The position numbers and the translations under genes were made by a program. A stretch of 64,000 nt of DNA from Eledone cirrhosa. Its lineage: Eukaryota. Position 1 is the first letter of the stretch, and each line of letters begins with the position of its first letter. Where the stretch lies: assembly GCA_964016885.1 (NCBI GenBank), contig OZ024746.1, positions 93,930,001 to 93,994,000 of the forward strand, in the 5' to 3' direction. Positions 9,198-25,284 of the stretch are shown here, in pieces. The notes beneath the pieces are model-generated. The model had not been told where the DNA came from. It made no database searches and saw nothing but the letters and a program-made list of their open reading frames with translations.

Positions 9198-12100
9198 GGC
9201 GACATGTAGGAAAACGTATTATCGCGAACTCCATAAAGGTTTGTTGTTTTCAGTTGTTTTGAATTGCCAGTTATGGAGAATTCTTGTTGTTAACTGTTTA
9301 TAAGTTCATATATATTGCTTTCTGAAAAGAGCGCTCAATAATATTAGAGCCTTGAGCCCAAAATTTAAAGTTTATTTTGTCAAACAAAAAAGTGTGGACG
9401 GCATTCGCCTCCCCAAATCTAGCCAGCTGTCTCGTGATAGCAGCTCTAACATACACACTACTCCCACCACCATTGTGAACCTTGCAACAATTGCCCAAAC
9501 CGATAACGTTTTTGCTAACAGCAACAGCGGTCGCCAAAGTTTGCCACGTGCAGACGTAGACTTCCCGCCTTTGCCAATGTCTACTGGTGTTAAAGCCGCC
9601 ATCTCCACCACAATGTCGAAGAGTACATCAACTCCACTGACACCACCACCACCACCACAGCAACAACTGAAACAAAAAAATTATCTCGTGATTGCAAAAG
9701 GAATTCTCCCACGTCGAACACCACCACCACATCAATAACTGAAACAAAAAATAACAAAAATAACAATCGCAACAACAGCATCAACACCAACACAAAACCA
9801 AATGTCTGTTTTGCTAAAGCGGCGAACAAGAACGAAACGATTGAGGTAAGTCAGGAAGAACTGAATGAGGCCAGGCGAATGGTGAAGAAAAATGGTTACA
9901 TGTGTGTCGTTTGTGGCGAGAGAACCCACCTAAAGACTTTCTGTCCTCAAGGGAGGGCTAAAAAATTAAGGCCACCTCTCCTGCCCACCCCACTAACTCA
10001 ACCATCAAAACCAGTAGCAGAAATGGCAGCAGCAACAGTAGCAAGACCAACACCACCTACCGCGCCAGAAATAGCACCAGCGCATCCACCATACCACAAC
10101 CAATACCAACGCCTGTGGAGGGCATTCCACTCCACGCCCTCTCACAACTGGAGAAGGATTGTAACGAGGAAGAGGGGTGGGAAACTATATCTGGGAAAAA
10201 AAAGAAAAATACCCTCTCCTTAGAGGGCGAAACAAACGAACAAGAAAGTTAAGAAGCTACGCGACGACCTACCATCACCATCATCAACCCAACACCACCA
10301 ACACCAACAAGCGAACAGAAACAAACCCACAACAAATGCAAGCAAAATAAAGCAGCCAAAAACGATACACACTACACAGCATTAAACTTGAACAAGCATT
10401 CATTACATTACATCCAACACAACACCAGCATCACAGAGAAAAACTATACAACAGCCCAAAAATTCACACCACCCTCACACATACAAATCACTCGTATCAC
10501 ACAGAAAACATACACAACACTAAAATCAAAATTCCCCAAGGACATCGGAGATTTCCGACAGACACTTTCCAGGAGGATATATAAAGACATCCTTCCGGAG
10601 GGGGCCACAAACAGTCAGAAGGACGGATTAACCATCCTTCCTCCACAAGAACTGAGGTAAGTGGTCTTATCTGGTGTAAAAGCCTCGCAAACCTGCTCAG
10701 ACGTTTCCAACTGTCTGACTGGCACATTTGGAAATCCAGTCGGTACCTATGTGGACATAGACAAACCGCATCGGGTCATCCAGATCGTATCTAGATAGTG
10801 TAAGGAAATAGATAGTTGTAGCATAGGTTGTCCACAATTCAAAACAATCGACTACACAGACCACAAATTCGTGAACTGTGTGGTCGACTTAAATAGGCTT
10901 CATAGACGGGGACTCGGTTACTGGAAGCTAAACGCATCGTTGACAGCGCGCAAAGCCTACAGAGACCGGATTAGCTAACTAGTTAAGCGTGGGTTGACGA
11001 GGGCCATCGTCAAAAACAAATGGTGGTTTGCACTGAAAAGGGCGATTAGAATAGAGTCCATTAAGTTTAGTAAGGCGTTAACAATAGAGCAGAAGGAGAA
11101 CTAGTTAGAAAATTAGACGAGGCGCTTAATAAAGGCATCGCGATCGATTCTTCAACGCAAAGCACGAAGACTGCGTTGTCAGAGCTAGGGCGCGTGTTCA
11201 CTGAAACGAGGGGACGAAAGCCGTTCGATGGGCCTGAGTGGCGGGGGCACGTCGTGGCAACAAAGCCACGATTCGATCTTTGGAGGACCACGACGGGCGC
11301 ATGCTACTCGAACCCAAGCAGATGTGTGCGGCTTTTCAGCAGCACTTCACACAGCTGTTCCGGAGCAGCGGTGGGCCGGATCGCAGTATGGACTTTAGCG
11401 TCTACCTCGACAGACTGCCGCGGCTCTCGGCTACAGAGGCGGAGTGCTGCGAAAGGCTGATAACAGCCGCTGAAATATGGGTTGCAATGACTGACTGCAC
11501 GATGGGTAAATCTGGTTTGTATGGTCTGTCCTACGAGCTTTACGTACACATGCCAGACTTGTTCGGCGACCTCTGACGTCTACTGCAACTGGCTGCATAA
11601 CGGGAGAATTCCCAGCTCTGTGAGCCGAGGAGCAGTAGCGTTGTTGAGAAATGGCCCGAACAAGGGGGACAAGATATATAATTGCAGGCCCATAACTCTG
11701 CTAAACACAGAGTTCAAGATTTTGGCCAAGGTGCTAGCAAAGAGGTTGGTGCTTGTCGTCAGTGGTCTGGTGGGAAAGGCGCAGACATGCACCATTCCAG
11801 ACAGATCCATATACGACAACCTCCACCTCATGCGATACATCGTGGAGAGTGTAGCTAACGAACCTGGCACGGGAAGGGCCTTGATCAATTTAGATCAGTC
11901 GAAAGCTTTCGATAGGGTCGACCATTGTTATCTGGCGGCCGACTTTGGGCCCGTCTACAGAGGCTGGATCGCTGCCATGCACAGCAAAATTATGCGCTCG
12001 GTTCGCCAAGGATGTCCCCTCTCGTCCCTGTTGTACCTATTGACTTTCGTGCCACTACTGCACAAACTGGAGATGTTGAGGGGCGTCCCGCACGAAATAG

Positions 12101-13707
12101 GACACGGGAGAACCGTGTCAGCATATGCCAACGACGTCACCGTAGTGGTGTCGAATGCCAAACACATCGAGGCGATCGACACTACACTAAGAGAATACGA
12201 GGCGGTGACAGGAGCAATGATTAACCAGGAAAATTCAGTGGGCCTGCAGCTCGGCACCTGGAGAGGCAGGTCCATGCCGTCCAACAGCGTCATCGGACGC
12301 TGGACGGACCGGTAAAATTGTTAGGGGTCTGGTTCGGTCCGGACCTCCAGACGGACAGAAACTGGGACGAGTTGACGAGTAGGGTGGTCTCTCTCACCCA
12401 GAAATGGGCCGAGAGGAAGCTATCGCTAAAAGGTCGAGTGGAAGTGGCGAACCTGTACATCACGTCCGTCATCTACTACCGCCTGACCGTCGTTCCTTGT
12501 CCTAAGCCTCGATTGACTGCTTCGGAGCATTTGCTCTTTCGCTTTTTGTGGAAGGGACGAGCTCTGATCGTCAGGCGGTCCGTTTGCTGTCAACACCCGC
12601 TACGTGGAGGGCTGGGTATGCCGTGGCTGATGATGCGCAGACATGCGCTCAGGCTACGGCATCTCCACCTTTTCCTCGACGGTGATCAGATGTGGACGCC
12701 GTTTGCTAGACGCATTTTTCCTCAGCTCGTCTCCTTGACGGAGCTGCAGTCCTGGGTCAAGCGAAGACCGAGAGGGAGTTTGGAGATTGGAATATCTTCA
12801 GGCGCTTACAGCCCTCGACCAATCGGGGAATGCGATCGGTGGAAACTCCACCTTGACGTTCTGTAGAAGGTTAGTGGAGGGAAAGAGCGACGACGTCCTT
12901 GGGGAGACTCTGTGCGTCGACGAAAATTAACTAGCCAATCTCTTCGGGAGAAGTGTCGGGCCGGGGCCCATGGACAACTTCCAGAAATCCCTGGCTTGGC
13001 AGTGCTACCGAGGAGCTTTGCCAGTTCGGGATAAACTCTACAGGCATGGAAGTGCCGTCAGCTGGGCCTGTTCGAAATGCGCGCAGGGCGACGAAACCGT
13101 TCTGCACGCACTCGTCCAGTTCGAGCTTATCGAACACCTGCTGTCGCGTGTAGGATGGGTCCGGCTATCAGCTGAGTCCATCGTGAGGATTGCCCCGCCA
13201 TCTTCCTTTAGCCAGGGAGGGCAGGCAGTTTTTATCGACCTGGTGGCCATGGCGAAAGAGGTCTTGTGGTGGACGCGTTTGAAAGGGCTGATGACGAGCA
13301 CTTACCTCTTCGGTGATGCCCTGATTAACTTTTTCAAATTTAATTTGAAAAAGAAAATCAGGGTGGAGAGGGAAGGGCTCTCTTCCCAGCAATTTGTTGA
13401 AAGATGGGTGAGAGAGGCAAGAATGGATGAGTAAATGGGCTTGCTCTGAGTATGCACCTGTAAACTGGAGGTGGAAAACTGGGAAAGGGCGCTTGCCCTG
13501 GTGGTCAGGTTCACCGTGGCTTTTTTAATGGGCTTTCTCTACGAGTGTCCCTCGGAAGTCTCTCCCTTATTGGGTAATTTTCTTTGTTTCTTTCTTTTGT
13601 TGTCGTTTCCTTTGTTTTTTCTTTACACGCAGAAATGCCCATTTGTACCGTCCTGTACTGTCCTTAATGTTACAGTTAATGTCAACCCTCGTGGTTAATA
13701 AAGAAAA
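9198..13707 (+). mobile_element. Near full-length decayed Tx1/L1-clade LINE
   Basis: ORF1 remnant with CX2CX4HX4C knuckle (CVVCGERTHLKTFC), ORF2 remnants, T-rich 3'UTR and AATAAA. 7-bp direct repeat CATTATT at 9191-9197 and 13708-13714. Confidence 0.9.
10660..13434 (+). pseudogene. Tx1-like ORF2 (partial APE, reverse transcriptase, C-terminal Zn finger), frameshifted
   Basis: TDH and GYWKLN motifs; RPITLLNTEFKILAK, LDQSKAFDRVDH, RQGCPLS, YAND (mutated YADD), LGVWFG, LSLKGR, CSKC...ETVLH. Multiple stops and frameshifts. Confidence 0.9.
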
Positions 13708-13959: not shown

Positions 13960-14526
13960 CGGAGTCGTTAGAACTTCGGTGTTCTGGTGGAGTAGTTAGG
14001 TCGTCGGTGTTCTGGCGGAGTCGTTAGGTCGTCGGTGTTCTGGTGGAGTCGTTAGGTCGTCGGTGTTCTGGTGGAGTCGTTAGGTCGTCGGTGTTCTGGC
14101 GGAGTCGTTAGGTCGTCGGTGTTCTGGTGGAGTCGTTAGGTCGTCGGTGTTCTGGCGGAGTCGTTAGGTCGTCGGTGTTCTGGTGGAGTCGTTAGGTCGT
14201 CGGTGTTCTGGTGGAGTCGTTAGGTCGTCGGTGTTCTGGTGGAGTAGTTAGGTCGTCGGTGTTCTGGCGGAGTCGTTAGGTCGTCGGTGTTCTGGTGGAG
14301 TCGTTAGGTCGTCGGTGTTCTGGTGGAGTAGTTAGGTCGTCGGTGTTCTGGCGGAGTCGTTAGGTCGTCGGTGTTCTGGCGGAGTCGTTAGGTCGTCGGT
14401 GTTCTGGCGGAGTCGTTAGGTCGTCGGTGTTCTGGTGGAGTCGTTAGGTCGTCGGTGTTCTGGTGGAGTCGTTAGGTCGTCGGTGTTCTGGCGGAGTCGT
14501 TAGGTCGTCGGTGTTCTGGCGGAGTC
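13960..14526 (+). repeat. 28-bp minisatellite (GGAGTCGTTAGGTCGTCGGTGTTCTGGY) x ~20
   Basis: Directly visible tandem array embedded in a SINE head. Confidence 0.95.
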
Positions 14527-23899: not shown

Positions 23900-24812
23900 C
23901 CTGGTAGACCTGGGATGGAAGAACAAAGGCTACGTATCCCGGGACCCCAAATAGGGACCGGTAGAGAGCAAACCATGGCAATTAGTAACTGGAACATTAC
24001 AACTCTTACAGTTAAGGAGCAGGAATTAGTGGAGGTGGCCAGATGCTACCGGCTAGGTATAGACAGGATTTCCCCACCAAAGTTCCGTTACTCTGGTACT
24101 GTAGATTTGGATGGAGAATGGAAACTCAACAATTGAGGTGTGGCGCCAGAGATGATTGCACTGGCGGGAATGGGAATGCTCACAAGCCCCAGGCTGTCAA
24201 AATGTGTTATGGACTGGATCCCACTAGCTTTAGCTAAAAGAAATATCACTGTGAGTCGTACAAGTTTATGCGCTAAACAAGGAGTCTGGATGCAGGTTCT
24301 TCCCTGAGGAAGTCACTGCAGCATTAAATGTTATGACTGAGTCATATATCTTAATTGTTTCTACTTTTGGCACAAGGCCAGCAATTATCTCAGTGTATTA
24401 CTGGTACTTTATTTTATCGACCTCGTAAGAATGAAAGGCAAAGTTAACCTTGGCGGGATTTGAACTCGGACCATAAAGGGTCGTAACTCTTTGCTGCAAA
24501 GCACGGCGTCCGACCCTCTACTCTACTGATGGTAGACTTCAATGCACATGTTGGCACTGACCACCTGACATGAAAGGAGTGATTGGAAGGAACGGCGATC
24601 CTGATCTAAATACAAATGGACGGGCCTTATTAGACTTCTGTTCTTGTAATGGGTTATGAACACCTTCTTCCAGCATAGAGACATCCATAAATATACATGG
24701 TATAAAGGGAATCGAGGACAGAGATCAAAATTGATTTTGTTTTCTCTGATCTCATTGATTCTGTGCTGGATGTTCATGTTGAGACAGGGGCTGAGCTGTC
24801 AACTGACCACCA
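23900..24812 (+). mobile_element. RTE-like LINE 5' part (APE endonuclease remnant) interrupted by a minus-strand SINE at ~24352-24521
   Basis: NWNITTL..KEQELVE, VQVYA, DFNAHVG, MNTFFQH, YTWY, SKIDF and STDH motifs across frameshifts. Confidence 0.8.
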
Positions 24813-24896
24813 CCAAAATTTTCTTTTCTGTTTGAATTTGGCAAAGCCGGCCATTTATCGCTCGTATACAGGAAACCGACTGGCCAGTCTGCTGAT

Positions 24897-24970
24897 ATGC
24901 AAATCTGGCTGATCAGTGGATCTGCTAATATGCAGATCTGACTGATCAGCCAGTCTGCTAATATGCAAAT
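24897..24970 (+). promoter_or_regulatory. Three octamer motifs (ATGCAAAT, ATGCAGAT, ATGCAAAT) at exact 33-bp spacing
   Basis: Positions 24897, 24930 and 24963; conserved in the copy at ~61660-61740. Function is inferred. Confidence 0.5.
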
Positions 24971-25038
24971 CAGGCCGATCAGACACTGTGCACTTTTGAA
25001 AATAGCATATATTTTCTCTAGCTCTGACAGTTTGGCAG

Positions 25039-25104
25039 GTGAACAGTGAGCTGTACTGATGAAGGGTGATACCCAGAAACATTAGTGACTGCAGTTCTGT
25101 TCAC
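25039..25104 (+). ncRNA. Type I hammerhead ribozyme (retrozyme copy A; cleavage triplet mutated to GAC)
   Basis: GUGAACAG-u-GAGCUGUA-CUGAUGA-A-GGGU-gau-ACCC-A-GAAA-CAU-ua-GUG-AC-UGCAGUU-CUGUUCAC. Bulged stem I of ~15 bp. Confidence 0.8.
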
Positions 25105-25284
25105 AGGTCAATACAAGAGCAAGAATGAAGTGTTCATTCTACTGACATGGCTATAAAATTGAGGGTTGTTTGCAAACTTGCAAACGAATCGAATGTTATT
25201 ATTAATATTCGAAAAACTCAGATTACATTTATTGTATTCACCCATGTAGAGCGAAATTTTCTTTTATATATATATATATATATA

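Follow-up and report, generated by a model that had tools for sequence, protein, structure and literature searches.

Octamer module shared by two diverged hammerhead element families in Eledone cirrhosa: a candidate component of an internal promoter

Coats, Zhang and Epstein are said to have demonstrated an octamer/PSE promoter in newt satellite 2 experimentally in 1994. The snRNA-type Pol II promoter of this satellite is cited in PMC2220036, where newt satellite 2 and a schistosome repeat are both named as having internal promoters. Metazoan non-LTR retrozymes were described by Cervera and de la Pena (2020, PMC7229834) as non-coding monomers of 150-450 bp with a GC content below 50%, a type I hammerhead, a strongly self-paired circle and PLE-like sequence nearby. 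Mussel retrozyme repeats measure 350-390 bp (PMC7229834). According to a 2020 review, metazoan retrozymes seem to be promoter-less and to rely on read-through (PMC7761336, available part). The pLTRs of PLEs hold a TSS and an internal promoter (PMC8557442), and vertebrate retrozymes have been argued to be pLTR-derived in a preprint on PLE origin (bioRxiv 10.64898/2026.07.22.740005), the available part of which does not discuss promoters. No promoter is mentioned in the available part of PMC6155905, and neither promoter, hammerhead nor retrozyme is mentioned in that of an Octopus vulgaris repeat annotation (PMC13282606). In the open-access literature searched, neither a description of this octamer module nor a cephalopod retrozyme study was found.

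The 64,000-nucleotide stretch of E. cirrhosa DNA analysed here (the window) was microsatellite- and SINE-rich animal DNA. One hammerhead element, family A, was represented by two copies. A1 (24816-25265, plus strand) comprised one 438-nt monomer with 12 nt of terminal redundancy, its junction motif at 24816 and 25254 giving the period of 438. A2 (61421-61901, minus strand) was 481 nt long, with 43 nt of redundancy and a different circular permutation. The copies were thus a 1.03-mer and a 1.10-mer of a circle opened at different points, and their monomers differed at 28 of 438 positions. The permutation indicates a tandem or circular source. Both copies adjoined (TA)n tracts, and no target-site duplication was evident at either. 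The monomer was non-coding, with stops in all six frames. Only solo permuted monomers were present; head-to-tail family A copies with at least two hammerheads were not seen in the window, and an nhmmer search for further copies in the window returned only A1, A2 and the two family B copies described below. Family A showed all tested structural features of the non-LTR retrozymes introduced above except the dimer. It differed from them in the solo permuted monomers and in an internal octamer array, which the available part of PMC7229834 does not mention.

The A1 hammerhead (25039-25104, plus strand) was identified as type I by a descriptor and by hand reading. It showed a stem I of 8 + 7 bp with a 2-nt bulge, a CTGATGA core at 25056, a stem II above an A.A mismatch at 10.1/11.1, GAAA at 25076, a 3-bp stem III and the triplet GAC. 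Judging from these bases, it is probably inactive, U16.1 having been lost. The A2 hammerhead (about 61530-61595, minus strand) had the triplet GTC and one stem II mismatch. In family B copy 1 (B1), the hammerhead (54498-54569, plus strand) had its core at 54516, T.T at 10.1/11.1, a 1-bp stem III, a palindromic tetraloop and the triplet GTA. The type I core and three stems were found in A2 and B1 as well, and the mismatch at 10.1/11.1 in all. HHR_Amex2 is a precedent for such a mismatch at the foot of helix II, an axolotl hammerhead having been described with U.U there, and the 1-bp stem III and palindromic tetraloop of family B also resemble amphibian hammerheads (PMC7229834). Rfam gave no match to the family A hammerhead in either gathering-score or E-value scans, and no match in the whole window at gathering score. 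The E-value scans (11 and 33 rows) returned hairpin and microsatellite miRNA-like noise apart from one weak Hammerhead_HH9 match to B1 (15.7 bits, E 0.57), where 52 is the gathering score. For family A, folding predicted an alternative structure 8-11 kcal/mol more stable than the active hammerhead. It arises at 25050-25090 in both A copies by pairing of the stem III region with the catalytic core, which is possibly a form of self-inhibition. A third hammerhead-like family, C, was seen at 51659-51714 and 61343-61401 (minus strand; 59 bp, copies 90% identical), with T.T at the base of stem II. Its copy at 51708 passed the descriptor scan and its copy at 61.4 kb directly adjoined the 3' end of A2.

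Within the A1 monomer, TRF detected a period-33 array of 3.0 units at 24883-24982 with 77% matches. The three quasi-palindromic units (24883-24981, plus strand), at the centre of the monomer's longest hairpin arm, carried ATGCAAAT at 24897-24904 (8/8), ATGCAGAT at 24930-24937 (7/8) and ATGCAAAT at 24963-24970 (8/8, in collinear position with the octamer of family B). A preliminary description of the locus had placed three octamer-bearing 33-bp units 70-140 nt upstream of the hammerhead, about three helical turns apart and present in both copies, and each of these points was borne out. The octamers preceded the 5' arm of stem I (25039) by 69-142 nt, the spacing of 33 bp corresponded to 3.14 helical turns, and the A2 array (about 61653-61751, minus strand; octamers at 61730-37, 61697-704 and 61664-71) showed no difference from A1 at any of the 24 octamer positions. 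A degenerate fourth unit followed in register at 24982-25014 (plus strand), matching the majority unit at 16 of 33 positions, a value reached by 0.3% of window positions. A related dyad hairpin at 25169-25186, with a 7/8 octamer on the minus strand in A2 only, was rejected as a kept feature, this octamer not being kept in A1 or B.

Octamers were not enriched across the window. ATGCARAT occurred 11 times where 7.3 +/- 2.8 were expected, a count reached in 13 of 100 shuffles. At least one perfect octamer was found in 8% of 3000 shuffled A monomers, with a corresponding P of 0.027 for family B. The preliminary description had named octamers no better conserved than their flanks as counting against it. 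Inside family A they were indeed no better conserved: A1 and A2 differed at 0/24 octamer and 1/75 other array positions (Fisher p 0.76), and among the three units 1/8 positions varied in the octamer vs 8/25 elsewhere (p 0.28). The array as a whole differed between the copies at 1/99 positions vs 27/339 in the remaining monomer (p 0.006), a low divergence that reached p 0.10-0.27 in a scan over all windows. The octamer triplet alone is weak evidence, since it consists of one tandemly amplified quasi-palindromic unit that forms an RNA hairpin and shows no octamer-specific conservation within A.

Family B was a diverged hammerhead element collinear with A, represented by B1 (54389-54793, plus strand, ends approximate) and B2 (59248-59647, minus strand), the copies sharing a microsatellite-rich 3' tail. 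In B2 the hammerhead segment was deleted in place and present instead in inverted orientation at the 5' end, a combination typical of Penelope-type insertion (PMC8557442). The window octamers at 54428 (plus) and 59544 (minus) belonged to this family. The B1 module (54425-54461, plus strand) held a perfect octamer at 54428-54435, a palindromic linker and, 28 bp on, a second motif that matched the octamer at 7/8 positions on the minus strand (54454-54461). The B2 octamer (59537-59544) was intact. The octamer lay 93 nt from the hammerhead core in A and 88 nt in B. Family B lacked the third octamer copy, the 33-bp spacing and the TATA box of A. Helical phasing was rejected as a conserved feature, the 28-bp spacing of B corresponding to 2.67 turns.

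B1 was collinear with A over about 280 nt, with an alignment score of 86 against 27 +/- 4 and a maximum of 51 among 1000 shuffles. With octamer and linker left out, the local score of 53 still exceeded that of all 2000 shuffles (23.7 +/- 3.7, maximum 44), so the homology of A and B is independent of the octamer. Identity was 57.7% over 279 columns and 67% of aligned bases. Against this background, the best-kept stretch in the alignment of A and B is the octamer of a shared module. The longest exact match, a 10-11-mer, comprised the octamer and the two or three bases preceding it; it was found under all five alignment settings and by an alignment-free comparison. The octamer 10-mer was the only 10/10 window among 270, the octamer with linker the only 19/22 window among 258, and the downstream flanks of A and B, aligned on their own, abutted the octamer without a gap. 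Between the families, the octamer was thus better conserved than its surroundings, in a comparison of two families and four copies. Preservation at this fixed site had a P of 0.012 (8 columns, 57.7% identity), 0.04 at 67% identity and 0.07 at the most generous identity. An exact run of at least 10 anywhere in the alignment had a P of 0.37, and the significance of the octamer therefore depends on the site being named in advance. In prokaryotic genome contigs, the A pattern was found at no locus and the A+B pattern at one, which was judged to be chance because the match was confined to the 23-nt pattern and a 407-codon open frame ran at the locus.

These probabilities bear on an explanation by chance and mutational mechanics, in which an octamer-like word of the ancestor survived by luck, slippage triplicated it in A and quasi-palindromic template switching polished it. 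Quasi-palindrome repair perfects hairpins without selection. The frequencies of octamers in shuffled monomers, their lack of enrichment in the window and the unremarkable probability of a run of 10 anywhere all fit this account. However, it requires that the ancestor had an octamer (3-8%) and that this came through intact in both families at 58-67% identity (1-7%), and it leaves the low A1/A2 divergence of the array unaccounted for. We consider it unlikely.

The array was predicted to fold as a long hairpin, as follows from its quasi-palindromic unit. Its z-score was -6.3 and none of 200 shuffles was as stable; circular folds gave z-scores of -6.7 and -9.4 (40 shuffles each), with the array as the longest arm. 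With the nine inter-unit substitutions the fold stood at -53.9 kcal/mol, whereas random substitutions gave -39.8 +/- 5.3 kcal/mol (P 0.008), and seven of the nine occupied paired positions, including the A-to-G change in octamer 2, whose position-6 G forms a G-C pair in the central hairpin. By these folding models, the array is a strongly selected or repaired hairpin. Other hairpins of A and B kept their position while their sequence changed; in the last of them, 10 pairs comprised two compensatory, two one-sided and one broken. Together with the read-through model (PMC7761336) and the self-paired circles of other retrozymes (PMC7229834), these features argue for a constraint at the RNA level only, with the array as an arm of the circle, transcription by read-through from host promoters, and the 10-22-nt block as a site in the RNA, octamer-like by coincidence, that is recognised by the mobilising RT, by a ligase or by a protein of an RNP. 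The linker, kept at 19 of 22 columns, could equally be an RNA recognition element, which counts against a promoter, as does the lack of octamer-specific conservation inside A.

The pairing partners of the octamer spoke against a purely RNA-level constraint. The octamer paired with upstream bases in A but with the downstream second motif in B, which lacks the 5' arm of A, and its letters were nevertheless identical. Its sequence was thus kept independently of pairing, and conserved pairing does not explain it. The AAAT of octamers 1 and 3 was mostly unpaired in the predicted rod. Overall covariation in the three-sequence alignment was also unfavourable, with a term of +2.15 and compensatory changes in 10 of 73 pairs. 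An RNA-only constraint is a serious possibility, albeit on balance not the expected one.

In snRNA promoters, the PSE lies 40-70 bp upstream of the start and the octamer about 170-250 bp upstream. With such usual spacing of the distal element (DSE), the octamers of A1 imply a start at 25109-25193, downstream of the hammerhead rather than between array and ribozyme, which would serve a purpose only if monomers stood in tandem. A start at 24994-25097 would follow from compact spacing. Both spacings have counterparts among human snRNA-promoter octamers, where 65 of 76 rows fell at -196 to -262 in a count by eye and 9 of 76 at -90 to -134 (PMC3499247). Octamers as expected of an snRNA-type DSE were present with three sites in A, and with one perfect and one 7/8 site in B. 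They resemble vertebrate DSEs in combining the consensus octamer with the position-6 G variant (PMC3499247, PMC9652321). Three of the 76 human rows, U1-11, U1-12 and U12, have ATGCAGAT as a site nearest the POU2F1 peak (PMC3499247, Fig. S9). The G variant of octamer 2 fits a DNA-level and an RNA-level reading alike, since it pairs in the hairpin and is also associated with POU2F1 in human promoters. Human DSEs differ in having one or two octamers, ZNF143 sites and an obligatory PSE, and in lying outside the transcript, whereas the A and B sites lie inside a repeated, transcribed unit (PMC3499247, PMC9652321).

The PSE is an essential core element of snRNA promoters (PMC9652321, PMC3499247), and matches to it in A and B did not exceed chance. 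The best matches to a vertebrate PSE consensus, which may not be that of the host, were 11-12/17 and were reached by 44-99% of shuffles; none of its four matches in the window lay inside the elements. For the predicted PSE of S. japonicum, which likewise may not be that of the host, the best matches were 11-12/21, reached by 80-94% of shuffles. Rfam found no snRNA gene in the window from which a host PSE could be read, and no mollusc PSE turned up in the literature searched. ARAGORN called no tRNA gene in the window, and there was thus no sign of a tRNA-type promoter. POU2/3/4/6 genes (PMC4407788) and a SNAPc gene (PMC13652810) are present in cephalopods. The DSE of sea-urchin U6 is annotated as an E-box (bioRxiv 10.1101/2023.01.09.523328), and invertebrate snRNA genes therefore need not use octamers. 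Family A shares with newt satellite 2 a type I hammerhead repeat some hundreds of base pairs long and an internal octamer, which the newt element reportedly has; it differs in its invertebrate host and its three octamers. The newt element is said to hold a PSE as well, whereas none was found above chance in A or B.

Pol III terminates at T-runs. Runs of T4-T5 stood ahead of the next hammerhead in both A copies (24819/24824, 24994 and 25012 in A1), where they would halt Pol III. They weigh against a U6-type Pol III promoter, which would combine the octamer DSE with a PSE, a TATA box at 25152 and a start near 25183. A TATAAAA at 25152-25158 (plus strand), 189 bp past octamer 3, was indeed present in both A copies, and comparable layouts are known from the human U6-1 gene, with its octamer at -221 to -214 (PMC3499247), and from the predicted S. 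japonicum U6, with OCT at -253 and TATA at -36 (PMC5460494). However, the TATA box was missing at the aligned place in B, and the best S. japonicum PSE match in A, 12/21 at 25119, was reached by 80-90% of shuffles. The layout was rejected on these three grounds, and a Pol III promoter of this type is highly improbable.

The explanation that we favour, tentatively and just short of calling it probable, is that an internal Pol II promoter, inherited from a pLTR-like ancestor, has the module as its POU-type activator, and that the module as amplified in A also lengthens the RNA rod. The array would be a tandem amplification, in family A, of an older module of octamer and palindromic linker common to at least two hammerhead retroelement families, both of which may be non-LTR retrozymes or derivatives of Penelope pLTRs. 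Likenesses to PLE pLTRs include partial tandem or permuted copies, the inverted 5' segment of B2, microsatellite neighbours and the hammerhead, and pLTRs hold an internal promoter (PMC8557442; bioRxiv 10.64898/2026.07.22.740005). Differences are that no ORF was tied by homology to A or B, that their hammerheads are extended rather than minimal, and that an octamer is not reported for pLTRs in the available parts of these two sources. The octamer DNA would bind a POU-domain factor (POU2/Oct-type or POU3) and thereby activate an internal Pol II promoter, with the start near 25110-25195 at usual spacing, each monomer of a head-to-tail source array driving the next. The hammerheads would excise 438-nt monomers that circularise, and the array RNA would form a predicted rod of about 130 nt that stabilises the circle and places a second constraint on unit divergence. 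A Penelope-type RT would then reverse-transcribe this RNA, leaving monomers in permuted form next to microsatellites. The solo copies in the window would be damaged offspring, able to fire only into their flanks.

The core promoter of such an element might be of the SNAPc/PSE type or a Pol II core of the pLTR type. A strict snRNA-type (SNAPc/PSE) promoter, which forms a subset of the favoured explanation, seems rather improbable. The preliminary description had suggested that the element may carry its own octamer-driven promoter of the snRNA type, and this is partly supported. The preservation of the octamer in B, the POU2F1 association of ATGCAGAT and the cited newt promoter lend weight to it; the lack of an above-chance PSE, the absence of triplicate and phasing from B, the hairpin, itself selected or repaired, the start beyond the hammerhead at usual spacing and the E-box of sea-urchin U6 count against it or leave room for doubt. 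We likewise doubt the wider proposition that invertebrate retrozymes, like newt satellite 2, possess an snRNA-type promoter dependent on SNAPc and POU factors, with the octamer module as an old conserved or convergent circRNA engine, triplicated in A, that disperses clustered POU sites.

The main value of the locus lies in an octamer kept between diverged hammerhead families, more than in the triplet. The module bears on how animal retrozymes come to be abundant as RNA in every tissue. With a POU site preserved in two families that are about 60% identical, there is a precise, mutable target by which a function of the DNA could be told apart from one of the RNA. A functional site would tie the expression of retrozymes to POU factors and turn the elements into carriers of ready-made POU enhancers; if the snRNA-type reading were true, POU sites would be dispersed through the genome of a cephalopod, whose brain is patterned by POU factors.

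Further repeats were present in the window. A broken, 5'-truncated PLE-like ORF was located at 59847-61216 (minus strand), with an RT tail recognised by eye. An Atlas lead connected its C-terminal part to a cluster with 11% GIY-YIG members; the ORF had no Pfam or PDB match, and one relative was found, none among longer proteins. About 200 nt separated this ORF from A2 on its upstream side and from B2 on its downstream side; the two belong to different families, and microsatellite or low-complexity tracts lay between them and the ORF. Three hammerhead families thus clustered round the ORF, A2 and C upstream and B2 downstream. In the 5' flank of the array (24828-24942, plus strand), one frame spelled VYRKPT (VYRKLT in A2), a coding remnant or chance; we presume a resemblance to a Penelope RT motif. 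The flanks of A1 (24540-24815 and 25285-25720) appeared by eye to hold degenerate RTE/CR1-type LINE fragments. A frameshifted LINE at 11491-13434 (plus strand) contained an RVT_1 domain (E 5e-18), and the only named relative of its RT (11491-12312) among the best 120 of 504 matches was from the cuttlefish Acanthosepion pharaonis. A SINE-like repeat of about 170 bp was present at 24344-24521 and in at least 17 other places with 78-97% identity, and no tRNA gene was called in it; this abundant SINE looks similar to an octopus SINE. Ahead of B1 (54291-54388, plus strand), (TGTC)n was followed by a segment of about 75 bp, which presumably resembles the core of Helentron-associated non-autonomous elements. 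Homogeneous minisatellites occupied 13961-14526, 44301-45721 and 51949-52434 (28 bp x20, 39 bp x36 and 99 bp x4.9), and CAC/CAA triplets filled 4.4 kb at 27362-31822.
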